Origin: Candidatus Enterousia sp.
GTDB taxonomy: Bacteria; Pseudomonadota; Alphaproteobacteria; Rs-D84
Direction of reading: 5' to 3'
Length of the DNA stretch: 64,000 bases
Assembly: GCA_045617905.1 (NCBI GenBank)
Contig: JAZLJO010000014.1
Span: 516-64,515 of the forward strand
Part shown: positions 3,053 through 31,506 of the stretch, in pieces
Numbering within the stretch: the stretch's first letter is position 1
How the letters are laid out: each line of letters starts with the position of its first letter
The notes under the pieces: model-generated
Database searches by the model: none
What the model was told of the DNA's origin: nothing
The model's input: the letters and a program-made list of their open reading frames with translations, nothing else
Program-made: the position numbers and the translations under genes

Positions 3053-3253
3053 TTAATTTTATCCTTACAATTAGACCTTCATTTAAACATATATTTTATC
3101 ATAAATTCATAAAAAATCAGTTATTGTGACACTAATAACGTATATTTTATACATTCAACAAAGCTATCTTTCTTGTATCAGTATTGGGGCCAGATACTTA
3201 CATTATATCATCACGAACAAAGACCATTATTTTTAAATCTATTGCTATTGTTT

Positions 3254-3397
3254 TTATAACCTGAGACATTGCATCAAAACATATGGTCTGTTTTGAGACA
3301 AAAAATACGTAGTTTCCAAAGGTCCTGTTTTTACATCTTTCATTGTCCCATATGTTCCATTCTTGACAAAATTACCGATTATTTCTGTTTGATTCAT
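3254..3397 (-). CDS. small hypothetical ORF (47 aa)
   Basis: An ATG is preceded by AGGAATGATAT (SD about 7 nt upstream). It is not in the supplied track because it is under 60 aa. No homology was recognised. Confidence 0.2.
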   Translation of the reverse strand: MNQTEIIGNFVKNGTYGTMKDVKTGPLETTYFLSQNRPYVLMQCLRL

Positions 3398-3525
3398 ATA
3401 TCATTCCTATGATTTAATATTGAAATAATAAAACACAACTACGACATTTTTGGTCGTGTTTTTACAATTTTTTTCATGGTCATCTAAAATCATATCAACA
3501 ATAAAAATTTTTTATTGAGATAACG

Positions 3526-3575: not shown

Positions 3576-5141
3576 ATGAGCATGGATTTTACACCGAAAA
3601 ATTTACCAACAAATTTGGAAGCGGAACAAGCCGTATTGGCGGCGATCTTAATGAACAATCGCGCATTAGAACACATTTCGGAATTTTTACGTGCCGAACA
3701 TTTTTCCCACCCTGCACATCAGGCTATATATAAACTGGCCATGCGACAATTTGCATCGGGCATCCCATTTGATATAATTACCGCAAAAAATTATCTGGAA
3801 CAACAGGGGGAATTAGAAACCGTCGGTGGTGTTGATTATCTAAGTCAATTGGCCGGTGCCGGTGCAACTGTTGTTAATGTTGAACAATATGGACACATTG
3901 TATATGAAAATGCAATGCGCCGTGAATTGATTGATTTGGGACATTCTATAACAGATCATGCGTATATCGAAGATATTGATAATCCCGTATCCACACAAAT
4001 CGAAGTTGCGGAACAAAAATTATTCGAAATGGCAGCAACAGGAACAACGGGACGCGACGTAACACCAATCGCATCCGCATTACAAGAGGCCTTAAAAGAA
4101 GCCGAAATCGCATACAAGGCCGACGGTAAATTATCTGGTTTAACCACAGGATTAACCGCATTAGATCAATCAATCAGTGGCTTACATCACAGTGATTTAA
4201 TTATTATCGCTGGCCGTCCTGCCATGGGAAAAACAACATTGGCAATGAATATCGCATTTAATGCAGCAAATGCTATTTTATATGGTCGTGCAAATGAAAA
4301 ATACAAAGGTGCCGTCGCATTTTTCAGTTTAGAAATGTCATCATCACAATTGGCCGCACGTGTTTTATCATCACAATCAAAGGTTCCCGCATCCGCTATG
4401 CGCGAAGGTAATTTAAGTGATGAAGATTTTTTAAAAATGTCACAATATTCCGATGCCATCAGTCGTGTTCCATTATATATTGATGACACACCCGGTATGT
4501 CTGTCCCAATGTTGCGCACACGTGCCCGCAGATTGGCCCGCAAAAGCGGTGGATTAGCATTGATTGTTATTGACTATTTACAGTTAATGACGTCACCTGG
4601 TGGTAAACGCAGTGATAACCGTGTTCAAGAAATTTCTGAAATAACCCGAGGATTAAAAATGTTGGCCAAAGAATTAGATGTCCCGGTTATCGCCCTGTCC
4701 CAATTATCGCGTAGTGTTGAACAACGTGATGATAAACGTCCACAATTGGCGGACTTGCGTGAATCTGGATCTATCGAACAAGACGCGGATATTGTAATGT
4801 TCACATATCGTGAAGAATATTATTTGGAAAATCGTGATCCTTCACAACGAATTTCAGGCAATACCAACGATAAAATCCAAGATTCATGGCAAAAACGTAT
4901 GGAACGTGCCCGTGGCAAAGCCGATATTATAATCGGCAAAAACCGTCATGGTCGTCCAGAAACTGTTCGCACTGCATTTTTTGGAGATTACAGTTTATTC
5001 GATAATTTGGATGAAATCGAGGCCCGCGGTGACAATGATTATTCATTCGACGGTCCAAACCAACAACAAACACCACAAATGACAGACGGTGGATATGGTC
5101 CTGAAATACTAAATGATGCAGATATCCCAGATGACATGTAA
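3576..5141 (+). CDS. dnaB: replicative DNA helicase DnaB
   Basis: N-terminal LPxNxEAEQAVLAAIL, Walker A GRPAMGKT, Walker B LIVIDYLQLM and the RecA-like motifs SQLSR and RESGSIEQDAD. It has an acidic C-terminal tail. Confidence 0.95.
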   Translation: MSMDFTPKNLPTNLEAEQAVLAAILMNNRALEHISEFLRAEHFSHPAHQAIYKLAMRQFASGIPFDIITAKNYLEQQGELETVGGVDYLSQLAGAGATVVNVEQYGHIVYENAMRRELIDLGHSITDHAYIEDIDNPVSTQIEVAEQKLFEMAATGTTGRDVTPIASALQEALKEAEIAYKADGKLSGLTTGLTALDQSISGLHHSDLIIIAGRPAMGKTTLAMNIAFNAANAILYGRANEKYKGAVAFFSLEMSSSQLAARVLSSQSKVPASAMREGNLSDEDFLKMSQYSDAISRVPLYIDDTPGMSVPMLRTRARRLARKSGGLALIVIDYLQLMTSPGGKRSDNRVQEISEITRGLKMLAKELDVPVIALSQLSRSVEQRDDKRPQLADLRESGSIEQDADIVMFTYREEYYLENRDPSQRISGNTNDKIQDSWQKRMERARGKADIIIGKNRHGRPETVRTAFFGDYSLFDNLDEIEARGDNDYSFDGPNQQQTPQMTDGGYGPEILNDADIPDDM

Positions 5142-6986: not shown

Positions 6987-7012
6987 AAAGGCGTTCATTT
7001 AAGAACGCCTTT
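6987..7012. terminator. bidirectional hairpin between convergent genes
   Basis: AAAGGCGTTC-atttaa-GAACGCCTTT forms a 10-bp stem flanked by A/T runs. Confidence 0.6.
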
Positions 7013-7038
7013 GCTTAACGTAAAAAACACATACGCAA

Positions 7039-7365
7039 TTATTTCTTTTTAACAACTTTCTTTGTAACTGGTTTTGCAGCAACTTTCTTTGCAGCTGGTT
7101 TCACAGCGGCTTTCTTTGCAACTGGTTTTGCAGCAACTTTCTTTGCAGCTGGTTTCACAGCGACTTTCTTTGCAGCTGGTTTTACAGCGGCTTTCTTTGC
7201 AACTGGTTTTTCTGCAACTTTCTTTGCAGCTGGTTTTACAGCGGCTTTCTTTGCAACTGGTTTTGCAGCGGCTTTCTTTGCAGCTGGTTTTTCTGCAACT
7301 TTCTTTGCGGCTGGTTTTTCTGCAACAGTTTTCTTAGATGCAGATCTTAAGAATGAAAAAGCCAT
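7039..7365 (-). CDS. Lys/Ala-rich histone H1-like basic protein (AKKPAAKK repeats)
   Basis: The 108-aa product is almost entirely A-K-K-(V/A)-A-x-K-P-(V/A) repeats. A strong SD (AAAGGAGAG) precedes the ATG. The composition resembles bacterial H1-like nucleoid proteins (AlgP/BpH1/Hc-type). Confidence 0.8.
   Translation of the reverse strand: MAFSFLRSASKKTVAEKPAAKKVAEKPAAKKAAAKPVAKKAAVKPAAKKVAEKPVAKKAAVKPAAKKVAVKPAAKKVAAKPVAKKAAVKPAAKKVAAKPVTKKVVKKK
7050..7330. repeat. imperfect tandem DNA repeats (24/48-bp periodicity) inside the H1-like gene
   Basis: The units ctttctttgcagctggttt(t/c)acagcg / ctttctttgcaactggttttgcagc recur head to tail. Confidence 0.8.
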
Positions 7366-7868
7366 TCTTTCTCTCCTTTCATATTTTGTTTTGCTTAGAA
7401 CAAAACTATTTTGTTCTTAATTTTCATTTTATATGAAATGACATTTTTAGTAAAGCATAAAGTGAATTTTTAGGCACATAAAAATTTTTTTTACAACTTT
7501 TGTTTTTCATAAAATTTTATTTTTAATGTTAAATCAATTTTTTCAAAATATATTTTTACATAAATTTAATAAATTTTTTTCATTCACAACCACTTACAAA
7601 GTGCAGATTTCTGCAATATTATAAACATAATACAACAACACAATATATCCATTTACAAACAAAACGAATAAACAAAATCCGCAAAATATTTTCCGTTTTT
7701 TATTTATACAATTATATATTTTTCAAAAATTTTTTTTATGATCTGCATATAAAACATATAAAAATATTCAACTGTATATTTTTTATTAAAATTTTTTCAG
7801 AAAACCCACATATAAATTTTAACAATCCGTACATTAAATATTAAATTTTCCGATTCGGATAAACATAA

Positions 7869-7958
7869 AAATTTGCGCAAACGCATTGTCTGCATTGCGG
7901 TAGGCACCGTTATTCAACCGGATGACGGTGCAAGAGTTTTTTGCCCCCCACGATTGTA
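7869..7958. repeat. conserved noncoding element, copy 1 (paired with 34708-34809)
   Basis: It shares the ordered blocks aaatttg.gc, attgtctgc, taggc, ccgttattcaac, tgacgg, aagag and ccca.gatt with copy 2. No conserved ORF is present in any frame. Confidence 0.6.
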
Positions 7959-8073
7959 AAGTTAGGTGCGTTTATGCAGTTATAAAATTGTATTTTATTT
8001 CACAATATTCACATTTGGATGGTACATTTTCCCCATTCACCACCACGTTAATCATCCACCCGTTTGTGTTTTA

Positions 8074-8514
8074 TCATTCACCAACCGACCCGAACAAAGA
8101 ATCACGAAATGCGGTTATAAGCAAAGCTCTATTTTGACAGAGCTTAGGACAAGTGCTAGTGTTATCTGCTGCAATTTGACGTAAAATATTCACCCAGCCT
8201 GACTCCATTGGGTGCGTCATCTTGCACCAACAGCGCCGACCTGTTGTTTCGCCTCCAACCGCATCTAAGTCTTTTCTCACCGTATAATTATCTCCACTAC
8301 CTGATATCGCTAAATCTGCTGCTACCCCCGACACAGCACCATAACTAAATTCTACATTCCATGTTCCGTTTTCATCACTATATGAACCCGATTTCCCGTT
8401 TTGACTGGGGTCCAATGCGATTACTATCACATCTTCTTTGGCGCATAACGATGTTGCATTTGCACCAAACACACCAAAAAACGACAAAAACATACATATC
8501 ATCAACTTTTTCAT
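8074..8514 (-). CDS. small secreted Cys-containing protein, paralog 1
   Basis: Start reassigned to MKKLMICMFLSFFGVFGANA (a signal peptide) after the AAAGGGGAAAAA SD. It shares LC.K, C(W/F)CKM and NTS.C..C blocks with the next gene. Confidence 0.6.
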   Translation of the reverse strand: MKKLMICMFLSFFGVFGANATSLCAKEDVIVIALDPSQNGKSGSYSDENGTWNVEFSYGAVSGVAADLAISGSGDNYTVRKDLDAVGGETTGRRCWCKMTHPMESGWVNILRQIAADNTSTCPKLCQNRALLITAFRDSLFGSVGE

Positions 8515-8530
8515 TTTTTCCCCTTTATTA

Positions 8531-8956
8531 TTACCATATCGATTCATATATCGCACTTCTGTATACTGATTTTTCGGCAATTTCAATGGCACAATCTTTT
8601 GCACAATTATTTGCACACGACGTATTATCATTATACGTTTTTATAAACACAAAATACGATGCCGCAGGTAACTTCATTTTGCAAAAACAGTTCGAACCTT
8701 CATCTTCGGTATCCGCAACCCCCGTATTTACAATACCATATCCGGCCCCAGGCATGTTCGTACATAACCCTTTGCCCTTTACATTTGTTCCATCGGACAT
8801 TTTTATTTCCCAATAATTACCTGTTACCGACTTAACTTCACCACCAACGCTTTTTCTTAAAATAGCAACCGCTGTATTCGTTTTTTTACACAGCGTTACC
8901 CCATAAACATGCGTATTCATAAATATCAGTAAATATATGCATATTATTTTTTTCAT
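8531..8956 (-). CDS. small secreted Cys-containing protein, paralog 2
   Basis: Start reassigned to MKKIICIYLLIFMNTHVYG after the AAAGGGGGAAAA SD. It is a paralog of 8074-8514. Confidence 0.6.
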   Translation of the reverse strand: MKKIICIYLLIFMNTHVYGVTLCKKTNTAVAILRKSVGGEVKSVTGNYWEIKMSDGTNVKGKGLCTNMPGAGYGIVNTGVADTEDEGSNCFCKMKLPAASYFVFIKTYNDNTSCANNCAKDCAIEIAEKSVYRSAIYESIW

Positions 8957-8970
8957 TTTTCCCCCTTTGA

Positions 8971-9704
8971 CTATTTTACTACATGATAGCTTTTGCCATC
9001 TTCGGTCCGGATATTTAATGTCCCACGCCCAGTCCCAGGTAACAAATTTACATAACATACGTTTTCTCCAAAACCAACGTTCAATGACGGCGCTATTTGT
9101 TTTTCTGAATATATTGGATATTTATATGTTTCACCTGTTCCATTCTTTATGTTAAAACTTTGCGCACCATGACCGCATAATGAACCACATGTCCCCAATT
9201 CTGTGTACACGCCACCATCGCACATAATAACACAGGTCTTTATGTCATCTGTTACCGCAAATCCGTATGAATCACAGACCGTATCTATTATTTCATAGTT
9301 TTCATATCCATTGGGACATGTATCTTCACTGGGGGCAACTATGACGTCACTGCTGACGATGGCATTGTACAAACCATCCGGACAATTACCCTTTCCATAA
9401 CTTTTACATGTCCCAGATACCATATATTGACCATCGGGACATAATATCGCATCCGTAACCATGGGCTTTACATAATCATTTGTTATTTTATAAATATCAT
9501 AACCATCGGGACATTCACCATCTGGGGCAAATATAAATGTTCCCGACACCAATTTGTCAACAATCAAATATCCATCAAAACACGAATCCAGGGCGTACGA
9601 AACATTCGAAAACAATAAAACACATGAAAAATACAGAATTTTTATCCCGGCAGAACTATACCTCTCTCTCTCTCTAGAGTTCCGCGGGTTACAGTGTTTC
9701 GCAT
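8971..9704 (-). CDS. secreted C-P-(D/N)-G-x-Y repeat protein, out of frame at an (AG)7 tract (candidate phase-variable gene, currently OFF)
   Basis: A promoter, SD and ATG at 9704 are followed by (AG)7. The ATG frame stops at 9644-9642. The long ORF (9645 to 8971) is offset by 1 nt and encodes the signal peptide KILYFSCVLLFSNVSYA, but has no ATG/GTG start of its own. Confidence 0.6.
9662..9675 (-). repeat. (AG)7 dinucleotide tract, written (CT)7 on the plus strand
   Basis: Read directly from the sequence: cc tctctctctctct agag. Confidence 0.95.
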
Positions 9705-9726
9705 TTCTTTCCTTTTCCTTGGCTTA

Positions 9727-9755
9727 ACAATAGTAAATAATCCATTTTTTGTCAA
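9727..9755 (-). promoter_or_regulatory. near-consensus sigma70 promoter for the (AG)7 gene
   Basis: On the minus strand: TTGACA (9755-9750), an exactly 17-nt spacer and TATTGT (9732-9727), about 20 nt upstream of the AAGGAAAAGGAAAG SD and the ATG at 9704. Confidence 0.55.
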
Positions 9756-9795
9756 AGCTTTTCTGGTGACATGTCATCTTTGGGTTTTAATAATT

Positions 9796-10734
9796 TTACC
9801 GCTGCTTTTTTTCATCCATAAATGATTCATTCGGAATATCTGGGGCTGTTTTCACCATATCAGTCGTAATTTCCGTTTCTGCAACAACATCTTTTTCATC
9901 TACATTTTTTATATCATCCACATTATTGTCTAACGTATTATTTGACCACGTTTGCATAATCTTCAAATTCGCAATTTGCAACATATCACGTTCCAATATA
10001 ACCGCAATATATGCATTGATATTATTAAAATTCGGGGTTTCACCTTCACATTCAGACAACACACGTGAAATCAAATCCGCCACATCAGAATCTGCCGTTT
10101 CCAAACGTTTTTTTAACCAATCGACCAATACATCTACACATTCCCCATCACCGGTCAGCATACAAAATCCACGTCCGTCTTTATCAATTACAAAACGAGA
10201 ACCTGTTGGACATATACAACGTCCAGCCCCATCTGGATATTTCGCATTATCTGGGATAAAAACCGCATCACGAATATTACAACACGCACGTCCAATTGTT
10301 GTTTCCCGACGCGACACACATGTTAACGGAGGCTTTTTTTTCTGCTTTGCTGTTGCATTATCAACACATCTGTTTCCATTCCAAAACACAGATTTATTTA
10401 TCAATCTACGCTTACATTCCAAATACTGTTGCAATTTGGAATTATTTAAACATTGAAAACATTGCGGTGTTTTTTTCCAAACACTGTCACTGATTATATA
10501 CGACCCATTGTTTTTTGGATCGGAATATATCATATCACGGGTTATATCAATTTCACGTCCCGCGTTTTCCGTTTCAGCAACGTAGACCAACAACCCATTT
10601 TTACATCCTATATTTTCATCAATACCATTTAACCAAAAATTATTTAAACCCGTAACATCACATACACGGTCTGCAAATGCAGTACGCACCAACAAAAAAC
10701 AAATAAAAAATAAACGGTTATAATGTATGTACAA
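9796..10734 (-). CDS. secreted Cys-rich protein
   Basis: 312-aa ORF with a TTG start after GAGGGG, the signal-like N-terminus YNRLFFICFLLVRTAFA, and many Cys residues (CFQC, CCNI, CICP). Confidence 0.55.
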   Translation of the reverse strand: MYIHYNRLFFICFLLVRTAFADRVCDVTGLNNFWLNGIDENIGCKNGLLVYVAETENAGREIDITRDMIYSDPKNNGSYIISDSVWKKTPQCFQCLNNSKLQQYLECKRRLINKSVFWNGNRCVDNATAKQKKKPPLTCVSRRETTIGRACCNIRDAVFIPDNAKYPDGAGRCICPTGSRFVIDKDGRGFCMLTGDGECVDVLVDWLKKRLETADSDVADLISRVLSECEGETPNFNNINAYIAVILERDMLQIANLKIMQTWSNNTLDNNVDDIKNVDEKDVVAETEITTDMVKTAPDIPNESFMDEKKQR

Positions 10735-10822
10735 ATCCCCCTCACTCTAGATATAGCATATATACAAAATTTACCGACATAAATACAAGTATTTTTTATG
10801 GCTCAATCAATAAATATCTGTT

Positions 10823-11548
10823 TTAATCCTTTGACAAATATGGGAAATGAATTTCATCGCCATAAACGAAATACATATTATCATCACGTTCTAAAATAAC
10901 CGCACCATCATCATTAATCCCGGTAAATTTATACATCTGCCCACGATATTCGACATTTCCATTTAAACCAATTGCCGATTCCATCCATCGGTCACGAACA
11001 TTATCAAATGATGCATCCAACCATATATCCATATTTTTTAATAATCGTGACAATAATTCTGATTGCAAAACATCCGCATAATTTTCCAATTTTGTTGTTT
11101 TATAACCAGAAACGGTTGGATTCGATTTTATATTCACCCCAATACCAACAACAACATAATCACCAACAAATTCAATCAAAACACCACAAACCTTTTGCCC
11201 TGCAATCAATATATCATTTGGCCATTTTATTTGTGCGTCCACACCAAACGATTTGATTGTTTCCGCAACCGCAACCGCAACGGAATATGCAATTTGTGGC
11301 CGACGAACAGGTGCATCATAAATTATACTGATATACAAATTACCATGATGCGAAACCCACGAACGGTTATACCGCCCATACCCCGCCGATTGAGCTGCAG
11401 CACATATAACCATGCAATTTTCCGCGTTTCCACGTTCAATCAACCCATGTGCGTATGTTTGGGTACTGGGGATTTTATCAAACATCAATACTTTATATCC
11501 GGCCAATGGTATAAATTCCGTCGTTTTGTAAAATGAAATCCCGACCAT
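10823..11548 (-). CDS. birA: biotin--[acetyl-CoA-carboxylase] ligase
   Basis: FDKIPSTQTYA, AAAQSAGYGRYNRSWVSHHGNLYIS (the GRGRxGRxW-type biotin-binding loop) and KWPNDIL. The start is uncertain: 11548 overlaps the upstream ORF, and 11485 is the alternative. Confidence 0.8.
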   Translation of the reverse strand: MVGISFYKTTEFIPLAGYKVLMFDKIPSTQTYAHGLIERGNAENCMVICAAAQSAGYGRYNRSWVSHHGNLYISIIYDAPVRRPQIAYSVAVAVAETIKSFGVDAQIKWPNDILIAGQKVCGVLIEFVGDYVVVGIGVNIKSNPTVSGYKTTKLENYADVLQSELLSRLLKNMDIWLDASFDNVRDRWMESAIGLNGNVEYRGQMYKFTGINDDGAVILERDDNMYFVYGDEIHFPYLSKD

Positions 11549-11912
11549 ATTTGTGTCGCAATTGATAAATCGCGGTATCAACCGCATGTGTCGAGGCATC
11601 CGGCGAATACCCCAGTGCAACTTTTAAATCATTTGCACCAACACCACCGCTTTTATCCAATATGGCAATAATCTGTTCCTGCATTGGTGACAATGACACC
11701 GGACGACCAAAAATTTTACGAATAATCTTTGAACGGTCCATGGCATTTAATACCGCAATCTGCAAATCCATAATATCAACCGGCCGCGGTATATCTAAAA
11801 CATCCATATTTACATCGGCAGTATTTGGCACATCCAACACAACCGCCCCCAAATCAACCAAAATTTGTCGCCAAAACACATCGGATGAAAAAATTCTAAT
11901 TCCGTCAAACAT
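11493..11912 (-). CDS. winged-helix (OmpR/PhoB C-terminal-type) DNA-binding protein without a receiver domain
   Basis: The C-terminal LSPMQEQIIAILDKSGG...HAVDTAIYQLRHKYGRDFI pattern is typical of trans_reg_C domains. Start chosen at MFDGIRIF. Confidence 0.5.
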   Translation of the reverse strand: MFDGIRIFSSDVFWRQILVDLGAVVLDVPNTADVNMDVLDIPRPVDIMDLQIAVLNAMDRSKIIRKIFGRPVSLSPMQEQIIAILDKSGGVGANDLKVALGYSPDASTHAVDTAIYQLRHKYGRDFILQNDGIYTIGRI

Positions 11913-11949
11913 TACCCACAGAATAATACACATGCATAACAAATGTCCA

Positions 11950-11978
11950 TAAAAAATACAGTCCCATAACAGGACTGT
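11950..11978 (-). terminator. rho-independent terminator
   Basis: On the minus strand: ACAGTCC-tgttatg-GGACTGT followed by ATTTTTT. Confidence 0.7.
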
Positions 11979-11992
11979 GTTCTAATCTAAAA

Positions 11993-12238
11993 TTAATCGT
12001 GTTTTTTTGTATCTATGTATTTTGTAAAATCTTGTATTTTCGCACCAGTCGACGATAAAATTTTTGAAATACTGTTGGTTGATGGCCAACGTGGCTGTCC
12101 CGCCCTGGACCAACGTTTACTTTTGTTAAATGTTGTTGGATCTAAACCGCTGCTTTTTGCCAATCCCGAACATGACATACCATGTTCAGACGCGAATCGC
12201 TCTATTGCCCGCCATACATCATCATGTGTCATTTTCAT
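11993..12238 (-). CDS. small HTH protein resembling the N-terminal domain of alphaproteobacterial LexA/S24-type repressors
   Basis: THDDVWRAIERFASEHGMSCSGLAKSSGLDPTTFNKSKR...RWPSTNSISKIL matches a widely conserved alphaproteobacterial HTH pattern from memory. Confidence 0.6.
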   Translation of the reverse strand: MKMTHDDVWRAIERFASEHGMSCSGLAKSSGLDPTTFNKSKRWSRAGQPRWPSTNSISKILSSTGAKIQDFTKYIDTKKHD

Positions 12239-12412
12239 CCCCTTTTTTTAAGAAATTCTGTCATAGGTCCTTCACCTATGTAATAAATTTTATTCCCAAA
12301 CACTACTTTTTTTCAACAGGTCGCATTTCCTAAAAACCGCTAAAAACCGCCATTTTTCACAAAAAATTTCCGGCCAATAATAATTGGCCAAAAAATTTTT
12401 TGACAATTATTC

Positions 12413-12441
12413 TTGACAAATCAAATTTAATGTATTACATT
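12413..12441 (+). promoter_or_regulatory. candidate promoter of the intergenic RNA
   Basis: TTGACA (12413-12418), a 17-nt spacer and TACATT (12436-12441). A second TTGACA lies at 12400-12405, and an A/T-rich UP-like tract is upstream. Confidence 0.45.
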
Positions 12442-12447
12442 TCGATT

Positions 12448-12640
12448 CGTCAAAGGAACAAAACCGATGACCAGGTGATAACACCTGTGGGGCCCGGGGA
12501 TTCAGACTCCCTCCTACATTCTCTCTCCTCTGGACCTTGGACCCCAAACATTTTTAGTTTAGAATGCCCATTTCTTTTTCTCCTTTCCTTCCTTTCGGGG
12601 CATTCGGAAACACCCCGGGGCAACCCGGGGTGCTTTTTTT
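12448..12640 (+). ncRNA. candidate ~190-nt structured small RNA with CU-rich (anti-SD-like) loops
   Basis: It is bounded by the promoter above and a strong terminator. It is locally GC-rich in an AT-rich genome. It contains the hairpin CAGGTG-ATAA-CACCTG (12472-12487), the CU-rich stretches CTCCCTCC and CTCTCTCCTC, and the hairpin GAATGCCC / GGGCATTC (12562-12605) enclosing a 28-nt CU-rich loop. Confidence 0.45.
12611..12640 (+). terminator. rho-independent terminator
   Basis: CACCCCGG-ggcaac-CCGGGGTG followed by CTTTTTTT. Confidence 0.85.
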
Positions 12641-27642: not shown

Positions 27643-28230
27643 TTATGACGACAACAGATAATAACAACTTGATTTAAAATGATAACTTCCTTTGGCATCG
27701 GAAAAATAAGTCGTCGACGGATAATAACAACTGGCTTGCCCACCATTTCCACTGCTGCTTGGGGTTTTATTATCTTTTTTAGGACAATCGAGACAAGTGG
27801 TTGAGCCTTTGTATTGGCCAGACTCGCAACATGTCCCAGTTGTAGTATCAAAATAAACGGCACAATTAGAATTATTCGTTGTACTGCTGTTTCCTATTGT
27901 ACTCTTCGTACACGTAGATTTAACCAATAAAAAACCAGACCCCCAAGAAGGCGAAGTTCCACATGGCTTTTTTTCTTTCAAAATTTTCTCACTTGCCACA
28001 GAATTGAAACATATATTTCCACCACATAAAGATCCGCTTATAGATCCGTCACCTTTATTTTTCCATGAATGACTTTGAAAAGCATCAGTGTATAACAATG
28101 CGGTTGTCGAATTATTAGAGTTACCGCAACAATAAATAAAACCACTTGAAACATACGCTTCTGCAGCCGCCTGTTGTTCCATACGCAACAACATCATCAA
28201 AGCCATCAATGCCAAACGTCGTAAAAACAT
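27643..28230 (-). CDS. secreted Cys/Ser/Thr/Asn-rich protein, family member A
   Basis: Signal peptide MFLRRLALMALMMLLRMEQQAAAEA. The C-terminal pattern is C..G.Y....C..CP......C...... D.KG.(Y/F).F...C.Y. An AGGGG SD precedes the ATG. Confidence 0.65.
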   Translation of the reverse strand: MFLRRLALMALMMLLRMEQQAAAEAYVSSGFIYCCGNSNNSTTALLYTDAFQSHSWKNKGDGSISGSLCGGNICFNSVASEKILKEKKPCGTSPSWGSGFLLVKSTCTKSTIGNSSTTNNSNCAVYFDTTTGTCCESGQYKGSTTCLDCPKKDNKTPSSSGNGGQASCYYPSTTYFSDAKGSYHFKSSCYYLLSS

Positions 28231-28299
28231 CTTTTCCCCTTATACCACACAATATAAAGGTTATTATATATATATATATATATATCAAGCACAAATTTT
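28173..28299 (-). repeat. shared 5' module, copy A (promoter, TA tract, SD, first 20 codons)
   Basis: Identical to 31376-31506 except for 2 substitutions that I can see and the TA-unit number. Confidence 0.9.
28263..28288 (-). promoter_or_regulatory. putative promoter with a (TA)10 spacer tract
   Basis: On the minus strand: TTGATA (28288-28283), a 14-nt spacer made entirely of TA repeats (tract 28265-28284), and TATAAT (28268-28263). Confidence 0.5.
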
Positions 28300-30857: not shown

Positions 30858-31433
30858 TTATGACGTATAATTACAACCATTGGTAAAATAAAATGTCCCC
30901 TTAGCATCTGTAAATCTAGTCGTGCTATCAAACCTACATGCAACAATAGGTGCCTGTCCCCCTGCCCCACCTGGGTGCACATTATAATGTGCAGGACACT
31001 GTATACAATCACCACTTAACAAATAATAGCCGGATGAACATGAAACAGACTGACCAGATGACGCCAACATAACATCACACGAATACCCAGCAGAAGATGT
31101 TGTCATTGTAGACTCACACCCCTTCATAATCCGAATTTCTTTGCCAGCACCACCAAACTTTATAGAATTGACCAAATCTGAAGAAATACACACCGCTGCC
31201 GTTGTATTATTACAAACTTGATTTTTACATCGGCCCGTTAAAGCATCTGACGACGCATAAGTAGCAACAGTACTTGATGGGAACGAAAATTTATACGTAG
31301 AAACCGCACTTGATACAGATATGCCTGCACCGCAATTTCCATTACATGCACAATACACATACCCCGCATACGCACGTTGTTCCATACGCAACAACATCAT
31401 CAACGCCATCAATGCAAAACGTCGTAAAAACAT
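30858..31433 (-). CDS. secreted Cys-rich protein, family member B
   Basis: Signal peptide MFLRRFALMALMMLLRMEQRAYA. The C-terminus reads CSSGYYLLSGDCIQCP...CRFDSTTRFTDAKGTFYFTNGCNY. Confidence 0.65.
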   Translation of the reverse strand: MFLRRFALMALMMLLRMEQRAYAGYVYCACNGNCGAGISVSSAVSTYKFSFPSSTVATYASSDALTGRCKNQVCNNTTAAVCISSDLVNSIKFGGAGKEIRIMKGCESTMTTSSAGYSCDVMLASSGQSVSCSSGYYLLSGDCIQCPAHYNVHPGGAGGQAPIVACRFDSTTRFTDAKGTFYFTNGCNYTS

Positions 31434-31506
31434 CTTTTCCCCTTATACCACACAATATAAAGGTTATTATATATATATATATATATATATATCAAGCACA
31501 AATTTT
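31376..31506 (-). repeat. shared 5' module, copy B
   Basis: See 28173-28299. Confidence 0.9.
31466..31495 (-). promoter_or_regulatory. putative promoter with a (TA)12 spacer tract
   Basis: On the minus strand: TTGATA (31495-31490), an 18-nt TA-repeat spacer (tract 31468-31491), and TATAAT (31471-31466). Confidence 0.5.

Follow-up and report, generated by a model that had tools for sequence, protein, structure and literature searches.

Gene A and its dinucleotide tract

The window is a 64,000-nt stretch of Candidatus Enterousia sp. DNA (assembly GCA_045617905.1, contig JAZLJO010000014.1, positions 516 to 64,515) that includes, on the minus strand, a gene for a putative secreted protein designated here as gene A (9704-8971). 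The 5′ end of the gene bears a run of seven AG units, (AG)7, and a first-pass annotation made from the sequence alone proposed that the gene is phase-variable and currently OFF. The features at the locus all lie on the minus strand. A -35 box, TTGACA (9755-9750), is followed after a 17-nt spacer by a -10 box, TATTGT (9732-9727), and 22 nt downstream by an ATG (9704-9702) that would be the start codon of gene A in the ON phase. The ATG is preceded by the purine-rich Shine-Dalgarno (SD) sequence AAGGAAAAGGAAAG (9720-9707), which matches in style the SD elements of the two genes downstream (AAAGGGGGAAAA-ATG and AAAGGGGAAAAA-ATG) and of L020-L023 (AAAAGGAAAGGACGAA-ATG), four homologous loci from other metagenomes that are described below. 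In a consensus scan the promoter matched 10 of 12 consensus positions and was among the best sites in the interval 7000-12500, within which promoter-like sites are not enriched as a class (30 vs 23.7 in shuffles). The TTGACA/TATTGT pair probably acts as the gene A promoter. A perfect 10-bp palindrome, TGACATGTCA, is located at 9767-9776, 11 nt upstream of the -35 box. The palindrome is not conserved in L020-L023 and could be an operator or a piece of the 3′ end of the upstream gene.

The conserved block AACCCGCGGAACTCT (9690-9676) directly precedes the (AG)7 tract (9675-9662), which begins nine codons past the ATG and is the proposed slippage switch. In the present phase the ATG opens an open reading frame (ORF) of only 20 codons that translates as MRNTVTRGTLERERGIVLPG and is closed by TAA at 9644-9642. 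The main, long frame is open from TAA at 9726-9724 to TAG at 8973-8971; counted from 9702, it reads ...RERERYSSAGIKILYFSCVLLFSNVSYALDSC.... Its earliest ATG, GTG or TTG codon is the TTG at 9615, which lies within the hydrophobic core of the signal peptide. The signal-peptide core, IKILYFSCVLLFSNVSYA (9645-9592), aligns with the signal peptides of other family members, and cleavage is predicted after SYA from the small residues at -3 and -1. The mature part (9591-8971) consists of cysteine repeats of the CP[DN]G type and a conserved C-terminal beta domain. The positions assigned in the first-pass annotation to the promoter, SD, ATG, tract and TAA were all confirmed, as were the location of the signal peptide directly past the tract and, by reading of the frame, the lack of an ATG or GTG in the main ORF before the internal TTG. 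The same annotation described four C-P-(D/N)-G-x-Y repeats: four CP[DN]G elements indeed are present (CPDGY, CPDGQY, CPDGLY and CPNGY), but the literal pattern fits only two of them.

Editing of the tract in silico demonstrated that the loss of one AG unit or the gain of two fuses the ATG to the main ORF, as had been suggested, giving MRNTVTRGTLERER(ER)YSSAGIKILYFSCVLLFSNVSYA|LDSC.... With six or nine units the product is an uninterrupted preprotein of 243 or 245 aa, respectively, with no further stop. Seven units place a stop after 20 codons, and eight units direct translation into the third frame where a stop is reached after 16 codons. The (AG)7 tract is the sole non-AT dinucleotide run of at least five units in the 64-kb window, and a 12-nt AG run arose in none of 100 dinucleotide-preserving shuffles. 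The tract therefore exceeds chance expectation.

Gene A is entered in the database as a 192-aa protein, P0001, that is called from an internal GTG. An exhaustive HMMER search of 1.84 billion cluster representatives recovered 143 representatives of the gene A family at E<=1e-3. Values of E in phmmer ranged from 1e-58 to 1e-3 and the best matches were 41%, 38% and 41% identical to gene A. The number of C-P-x-G-Y-type cysteine repeats varies among family members, which share a conserved C-terminal domain of ~85 aa with invariant cysteine and motif columns (..C..LC..G...L.T..G...P.Y..K...PS.N.....CYVNL..G....N....YH..). Ordinary N-terminal signal peptides are present in most of the proteins, and in some the n-region is long. 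The gene A protein has no Pfam or NCBIfam match. Its AlphaFold2 model is confident only in the C-terminal beta domain (residues ~140-224, pLDDT >90), and a Foldseek search with the model gave no significant match in PDB or BFVD. Judged by these comparisons, gene A is a member of an uncharacterised family of predicted secreted, cysteine-rich proteins.

Gene A heads a conserved cassette of three genes, A-B-C, that occupies 8074-9704 in the window. Gene B (8956-8531; 141 aa, CFCKM motif) starts 14 nt past gene A and gene C (8514-8074; 146 aa, CWCKM motif) starts 16 nt past gene B, and each has its own SD and encodes a signal peptide. B and C are paralogous, and their secreted products measure ~140-160 aa and share a C[WF]C[KR]M motif, the B proteins ending in ..SIW and the C proteins in ..LFGSV... 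Gene B is homologous to the B genes of L022, L018, L006 and L005, and the gene C product is 36% and 35% identical to the C proteins of L022 and L020, respectively. Homologs of B and C follow gene A in L005, L006, L018, L020 and L022 as assessed by blastp, and the A-to-C order was detected by tblastx in >10 metagenomic loci in all (L005, L006, L008-L011, L014-L018, L020, L022 and L023). None of the three cassette genes has a Pfam, NCBIfam or structural match. In L018 two cassettes are arranged in tandem beside a tyrosine-recombinase gene.

Tract polymorphism in homologous loci

DNA that encodes family members was recovered from Logan, ENA and JGI assemblies. Besides the window, a long dinucleotide tract is present at the matching position in six loci from other metagenomes: (AG)8 in L004, (AC)10 in L010 where it is preceded by the block GCCGCAGAAACCT, (AG)16 in L020, (AG)18 in L021, (AG)19 in L022 (JGI) and (AG)18 in L023 (ENA). 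In L007 the tract is short, (AG)4, and both the ATG and the main ORF are in frame with it. Thus, the tract is not invariant among relatives, and the tract-bearing homologs retain an upstream SD and ATG. The 5′ modules of L020-L023, the four closest ones, align with that of the window from the -35 box through the tract. The common module comprises a -35 box TTGAC(A/G), which is TTGACA or TTGACG in L020-L023; a -10 box TAT(C/T)(A/G)T, which in these loci is TATCAT at the equal 22-nt distance from the ATG; the SD AAGGAAAGGA; the ATG; the pre-tract sequence (A/C)CCGC(A/G)GAACTCT; and GGTATA past the tract. The pre-tract block occurs as AACCCGCAGAACTCT in L021-L023, AAACCGCAGAACTCT in L020, AACCCGCAGAAACCT in L004 and AAGCCGCAGAAACCT in L010. 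Across the loci this block is read in three different frames, and its conservation is therefore at the nucleotide level. Despite the common 5′ module, the proteins of L020-L023 are only ~30% identical to that of gene A in the window.

The closest comparison is between L022 and L023, which derive from different repositories and samples and specify an identical called protein of 320 aa. Over the first ~7,990 nt the two loci differ by two single-nucleotide polymorphisms and by exactly one AG unit. The one-unit difference bears the signature of a hypermutable tract. The length of the tract is polymorphic while the flanks are constant in homologous loci, including (AG)16 in L020 at 97% identity. 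The alleles of the window, L010 and L020-L023 each are exactly one unit, gained or lost, from an open frame that links the ATG to the mature protein, and both OFF phases are represented. Loci of the L022/L023 type would be in frame at 14, 17 or 20 units. Among database relatives with truncated signal peptides, P0056, P0044 and P0051 are OFF alleles with tracts. A truncated signal peptide partly fails as a general marker of the OFF state: P0019 was miscalled by the gene caller, its ATG lying upstream in frame with no tract present, and P0031 likewise has no tract, its contig including only 106 nt upstream of the gene.

The stretch between the tract and the signal peptide provides information on the frame in which it is read. 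In L020-L023, the first in-frame ATG lies ~138 nt past the tract, and before it the main frame has no canonical start other than a GTG two codons further upstream. Across this interval the main frame is the only open one. When L020 and L022 were compared over the 138 nt, seven of the nine substitutions were at third positions of the main frame (p ~0.008 for at least seven of nine at one given codon position, by our own binomial calculation). The ratio of synonymous to non-synonymous changes was 6:3 in the main frame compared to 1:8 and 0:9 in the other frames. This pattern argues at the sequence level that the stretch is translated in the main frame in the L020-L023 subgroup, which would need the upstream ATG and the ON phase, and in turn argues that the upstream ATG is used and that the ON phase probably is under selection. 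The in-frame short tract of L007 lends further indirect support to an ON phase. In L021, the part of the signal peptide that comprises KK and the hydrophobic core is encoded in the main frame without a start of its own, and in both the window and L021 the n- and h-regions of the signal peptide have no canonical in-frame start directly upstream.

Three stable hairpins directly follow the AG tract in L020-L023 (z -5.4 and -3.1; 5863-6000 in L022 and 458-600 in L021). The stems are CACACGCGC-loop-GCGCGTGTG and GGTTCGC-loop-GCGAACC, and the third hairpin differs in sequence between the loci and still pairs. The hairpins are situated inside the stretch that also evolves as main-frame coding sequence, and in the OFF phases of these loci the short leader ORF stops either before or within hairpin 1. 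None of the hairpins is followed by a U-run. In the window, no significant RNA structure was detected past the tract (z +1.2).

Assessment of the proposed translational phase variation

The layout of the locus in conjunction with the comparative data makes it likely that gene A is a contingency gene governed by a simple sequence repeat (SSR) through classical slipped-strand translational phase variation. The proposal of the first-pass annotation, that the gene is phase-variable, presently OFF and arranged as in the oipA, sabA and hopZ genes of Helicobacter pylori, gains support from the homologous loci, and none of the outcomes that the annotation named as refuting it appeared in the public data examined. 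In the proposed mechanism, transcription would start from TTGACA/TATTGT and ribosomes would load at the strong SD and ATG 9704. Nine codons on, the ribosomes would meet (AG)n in an N-terminal extension ahead of the signal-peptide core, the number of units having been altered by gains or losses during replication slippage. With six or nine units the ATG frame would enter the signal peptide, and the preprotein of 243-245 aa would be made and exported (ON). With seven units, as assembled, or eight, an early stop would be encountered and no start equipped with an SD would yield a secretable product (OFF). In this model, the tract in the window would switch at a useful rate and ON cells would exist. 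The OFF phase may reduce expression of genes B and C through polarity, and the cassette products may function at the surface of the cell or where it meets the host or phages.

A number of observations weigh against this interpretation. The long-tract alleles are OFF in seven of seven cases (window, L004, L010 and L020-L023), in a sample that covers few contigs and that was reached largely through the OFF state itself: L004, L020, L021 and, via the cluster of L020, L022 and L023 were found through truncated OFF-type gene calls, the window was flagged because it is OFF, and L010 is the only unbiased sample. An N-terminal run of the RERERE or THTHTH type, as would be specified by the tract, is present in no family representative among 146 family sequences. 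Exact look-up of 10 virtual ON proteins in a collection of 15 billion proteins, a test of low power, produced no match. In L004, a TGA is positioned in the ON frame past the tract where the window has a Gly codon, and this locus looks like a decayed copy as judged from its sequence. In the ON product of L020-L023 an unusually long extension of ~75 aa would precede the signal-peptide core. Seven units also is at the short end for fast slippage. Moreover, no close relative of the window's own locus was found in the databases that were searched. In a word-indexed protein search, gene A and the 312-aa gene upstream matched only the window's own products, and P0001 and the products of genes B and C had no match in exact look-ups. 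A genome scan anchored on the neighboring birA gene found a 94% relative whose contig diverges right past the birA stop, and metagenome and viral scans with a single protein or the family alignment recovered no close relative. A 36-sequence alignment gave only five proteins in a protein search and was too diverse for a locus scan.

The arrangement can be compared with established repeat-based switches. The oipA, sabA, sabB and hopZ genes of H. pylori have CT dinucleotide repeats in the 5′ region that encodes the signal peptide. As in these genes, gene A has a dinucleotide repeat that separates the start codon from the sequence for the mature secreted or surface protein, AG in the coding strand here and CT there, and as the unit is not a multiple of three, changes of one unit toggle the frame. 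The repeat number gives the status of the switch in sabA, sabB and hopZ. The same holds for oipA (PMC10564699). The likeness is one of mechanism only: gene A shows no homology to the porin-like outer-membrane proteins of the Hop/OipA family, as it has no Pfam, NCBIfam, PDB or BFVD match, the host is an uncultured gut alphaproteobacterium and not an epsilonproteobacterial pathogen, and the gene heads a three-gene cassette. The tracts also extend to 19 units with AC in one homolog, and whereas ON alleles of oipA are documented, none was seen among the seven long-tract alleles. In the Neisseria opa multigene family, CTCTT pentamer repeats are located in the signal-peptide coding region, and a conserved 5′ region is joined to a variable body. 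Members of the gene A family likewise encode divergent surface or secreted proteins and have their own copies of a conserved 5′ region, in which a slippage tract falls within the leader-coding sequence. However, the repeat unit is 2 and not 5, the proteins are unrelated and there is a single copy in the 64-kb window.

Among the Alphaproteobacteria, Bartonella badE and other trimeric-autotransporter adhesin loci have mononucleotide SSRs inside a large adhesin gene, with switching shown experimentally (PMC11466379). These loci and gene A would share SSR frameshift ON/OFF control of a surface protein in a host-associated alphaproteobacterium, but the gene A tract is a dinucleotide repeat at the extreme 5′ end and is supported by comparative data. 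The first-pass annotation considered switches of this type to be new for such genomes, a view that stands for uncultured gut lineages and dinucleotide tracts, but not more broadly in light of the Bartonella SSRs. Phase variation of pil1 in Streptococcus gallolyticus involves GCAGA repeats in a leader peptide combined with attenuation (PMC3894217). Here too the repeats are in a short ORF upstream of structural genes, and L020-L023 have stem-loops past the tract and a leader stop that depends on the phase. In contrast to pil1, no terminator-like U-run is present. The window lacks stem-loops, and its main frame has neither an SD nor a canonical start before the hydrophobic core. Here one phase joins the leader to the structural gene, and the sequence between them shows the evolution of a coding region.

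The OFF state of every observed long-tract allele also would be expected if gene A were a decaying pseudogene, that is, if a slippage-prone tract had frameshifted a dispensable, fast-evolving gene and the OFF state were permanent and non-adaptive. The TGA that L004 has gained in its would-be ON frame, the differing frame of the L004 ATG relative to the pre-tract block, the lack of close relatives of gene A and its upstream neighbor in the searches, and the absence of the cassette region downstream of birA in the nearest metagenome-assembled genome (MAG) fit with decay. Nevertheless, the 224-codon body past the tract is intact in the window, and L010 and L020-L023 likewise have no further stop or frameshift. 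The promoter, SD, ATG and sequences flanking the tract have been conserved between loci with proteins as divergent as noted above, the expansion of the tracts to 16-19 units and the AC unit at the same site suggest selected mutability, the substitutions show a third-codon-position signature in the ON frame, and a change of just one unit would turn ON the alleles of the window, L010 and L020-L023. Decay is thus an unlikely explanation of the locus. Instead, the ATG might always open a separate short ORF whose length or stop position, fixed by the tract, modulates transcription or translation of an independently started main ORF, either through attenuation of the pil1 type or through termination and reinitiation. 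The ATG ORF is short and separate in all long-tract alleles; the TAA overlaps a main-frame ATA in the window and L004 (gATAa and cTAATA), which recalls ATGA/TAATG coupling; and L020-L023 possess the three hairpins, an in-frame ATG before the hydrophobic core, and two OFF phases that end the leader before or inside hairpin 1. This explanation is decidedly unlikely given the lack of post-tract structure in the window, where the main frame also has no SD or canonical start before the hydrophobic core. No U-run follows the L020-L023 hairpins, L010 has no ATA/TAA overlap, and the L007 ATG is in frame with the main ORF. The third-position pattern furthermore implies main-frame translation of the stretch from the tract to the signal peptide, for which the upstream ATG is required. 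An ATA start, taken as a mutated ATG or as a site of reinitiation, or stop-start coupling was considered separately, as an ATA precedes the core in the window, L004 and L007 and the leader TAA overlaps it in the window and L004. It was rejected: the ATA has no SD, the overlap is missing from L010, the ATA of L021 is far downstream of the leader stop, and neighboring genes use a plain SD-ATG arrangement.

The remaining explanations concern the tract count and its decoding. The true count in the window might be six or nine units (ON), or a mixed population might have been assembled with an arbitrary or minority length. No part of an assembly is less reliable than a repeat count, and the consensus counts of L022 and L023 differ between assemblies of near-identical DNA. 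However, 14 nt of AG is short against any read length and rarely is miscalled in a consensus, and six other assemblies likewise show out-of-frame counts. A miscount is very unlikely and would alter only the designation as currently OFF, not the nature of the locus. The tract as such is not an assembly error, a prospect raised in the first-pass annotation, as it is present in seven independent assemblies, although the exact count of seven in the window remains less certain. In some bacteria, rare AGA/AGG codons in series can induce frameshifting, and this lends some plausibility to the idea that programmed shifts by the ribosome, or transcriptional slippage, at the AG tract restore the frame in a fixed fraction of products without a change in the DNA. 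This possibility is extremely remote. The tract varies in length at the DNA level, and programmed frameshifting was rejected because the alleles require opposite corrections, -1 in the window, L021 and L023 and +1 in L010, L020 and L022, such that no single shift would serve the family. Of the readings compared, slipped-strand phase variation of gene A is the best supported.

Genomic setting and biological implications

The GC content is 31-41%. The product of the adjacent birA gene is 94% and 88% identical to those on two contigs (L001 and L002) of a horse-faeces MAG assigned as 'Alphaproteobacteria bacterium', in agreement with the earlier description of the genome as AT-rich and alphaproteobacterium-like. 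Similarity to the MAG ends at the birA stop (window 10734-10823 versus L001 1651-2034 and L002 1650-1919), and the four secreted-protein genes downstream of birA, namely the gene at 9796-10734 and A-B-C, therefore lie in DNA that varies between strains or species. The two MAG contigs terminate in the same short repeat (..AATCGGAAAATTTAATATTTAATGTACGGATTGTTAAA). The upstream gene (9796-10734, minus strand) encodes a cysteine-rich secreted protein of 312 aa that has no relatives in the word-indexed search. Its candidate starts are a TTG only 2 nt past the SD GAGGGGGA and an ATA at better spacing, and the database call begins at an internal GTG that cuts the signal peptide. Further downstream, the gene at 7039-7365 (minus strand) encodes a histone-H1-like, Lys/Ala-rich protein with approximately ten 27-nt tandem repeats (AAKKVAEKP-type) and a weak match to Pfam HC2 that is below threshold.

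Family genes without the AG module are preceded by a structured, conserved element of the form GGTTGGGGGGCCGC...TTCGAACCCCCCGACC(ACCA) with a tRNA-like 3′ end (L005 ~3630-3850; L016 ~3250-3425; L017 ~90-300; L018 ~2780-2935; L006 ~100-150; L019 1-20). The copy in L018 shows compensatory GGAGG/CCTCC changes. The element was not detected by ARAGORN, and its sole Rfam match was a weak one to sRNA-Xcc1 (26.9 bits vs a gathering score of 53). At the gathering threshold, Rfam identified tRNAs only, both in the window and in related loci. Intergenic DNA of related cassettes, situated between the A, B and C genes or past them, includes G or C homopolymers of 7-9 nt (L020 1258-1266; L022 7589-7595 and 8238-8244; L023 8250-8258 and 8339-8346; L010 4648-4654), with an identical G7 between genes B and C in L022 and L023. 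These homopolymers may be further slippage sites.

Two additional SSR loci occur in the window. A (TA)10.5 tract (28265-28285, 21 nt) and a (TA)12.5 tract (31468-31492, 25 nt) precede the minus-strand genes 27643-28230 and 30858-31433, respectively. The upstream modules otherwise are identical, AAAATTTGTGCTTGA-(TA)n-ATAACCTTTATATTGTGTGGTATAAGGGGAAAAG-ATG, and the identity continues through the first ~20 codons. The genes are cysteine-rich paralogs that are 35% identical overall, have a signal-peptide-like N-terminus (MFLRR[LF]ALMALMMLLRMEQ..) and have no Pfam match. In each case the TA tract bridges a -35-like box, TTGATA, and a -10 box, TATAAT, and the two copies differ in spacer length (14 nt versus 18 nt). 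By analogy, this arrangement looks like the promoter-spacer phase variation of the Haemophilus influenzae hif type. The genome appears to use SSR switches repeatedly because the two further TA loci are in identical promoter modules.

A broader interpretation is possible and is put forward tentatively. The block of promoter, SD, ATG, pre-tract sequence and repeat might be a portable switch module, conserved at the nucleotide level and placed on divergent members of a secreted cassette in uncultured gut Alphaproteobacteria. Within such a module the unit (AG or AC) and the length (4-19) would be free to evolve, hairpin coupling would have been added in one subgroup, and the three phases might equate to three expression states. 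If true, the portable module together with the TA-tract promoters would constitute a multi-locus phasome in a commensal lineage for which the searched literature holds no prior report of SSR phase variation. Dinucleotide switches were not found in the searched literature, either for uncultured gut Alphaproteobacteria or for the gene A family. According to a recent review, multi-locus SSR phase variation looks confined to pathogens, which may come from database bias alone, and the extent of phase variation beyond pathogens is posed there as a question (PMC11868660).

Most likely, the mechanism at gene A is a known one and the protein family and lineage are new. The window assigns a probable dinucleotide switch and two more candidate switches, within 64 kb, to a low-GC uncultured gut lineage that is known only from metagenomes. 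Gene callers systematically truncate genes of this type; the database entries for gene A and its relatives begin at internal codons. Tract polymorphism already is visible between public metagenomes, and the locus offers a site at which phase variation could be measured directly in gut metagenomic reads. The locus also points to a protein family that has no Pfam, NCBIfam or structural match and that probably is under selection by the host or by phages.

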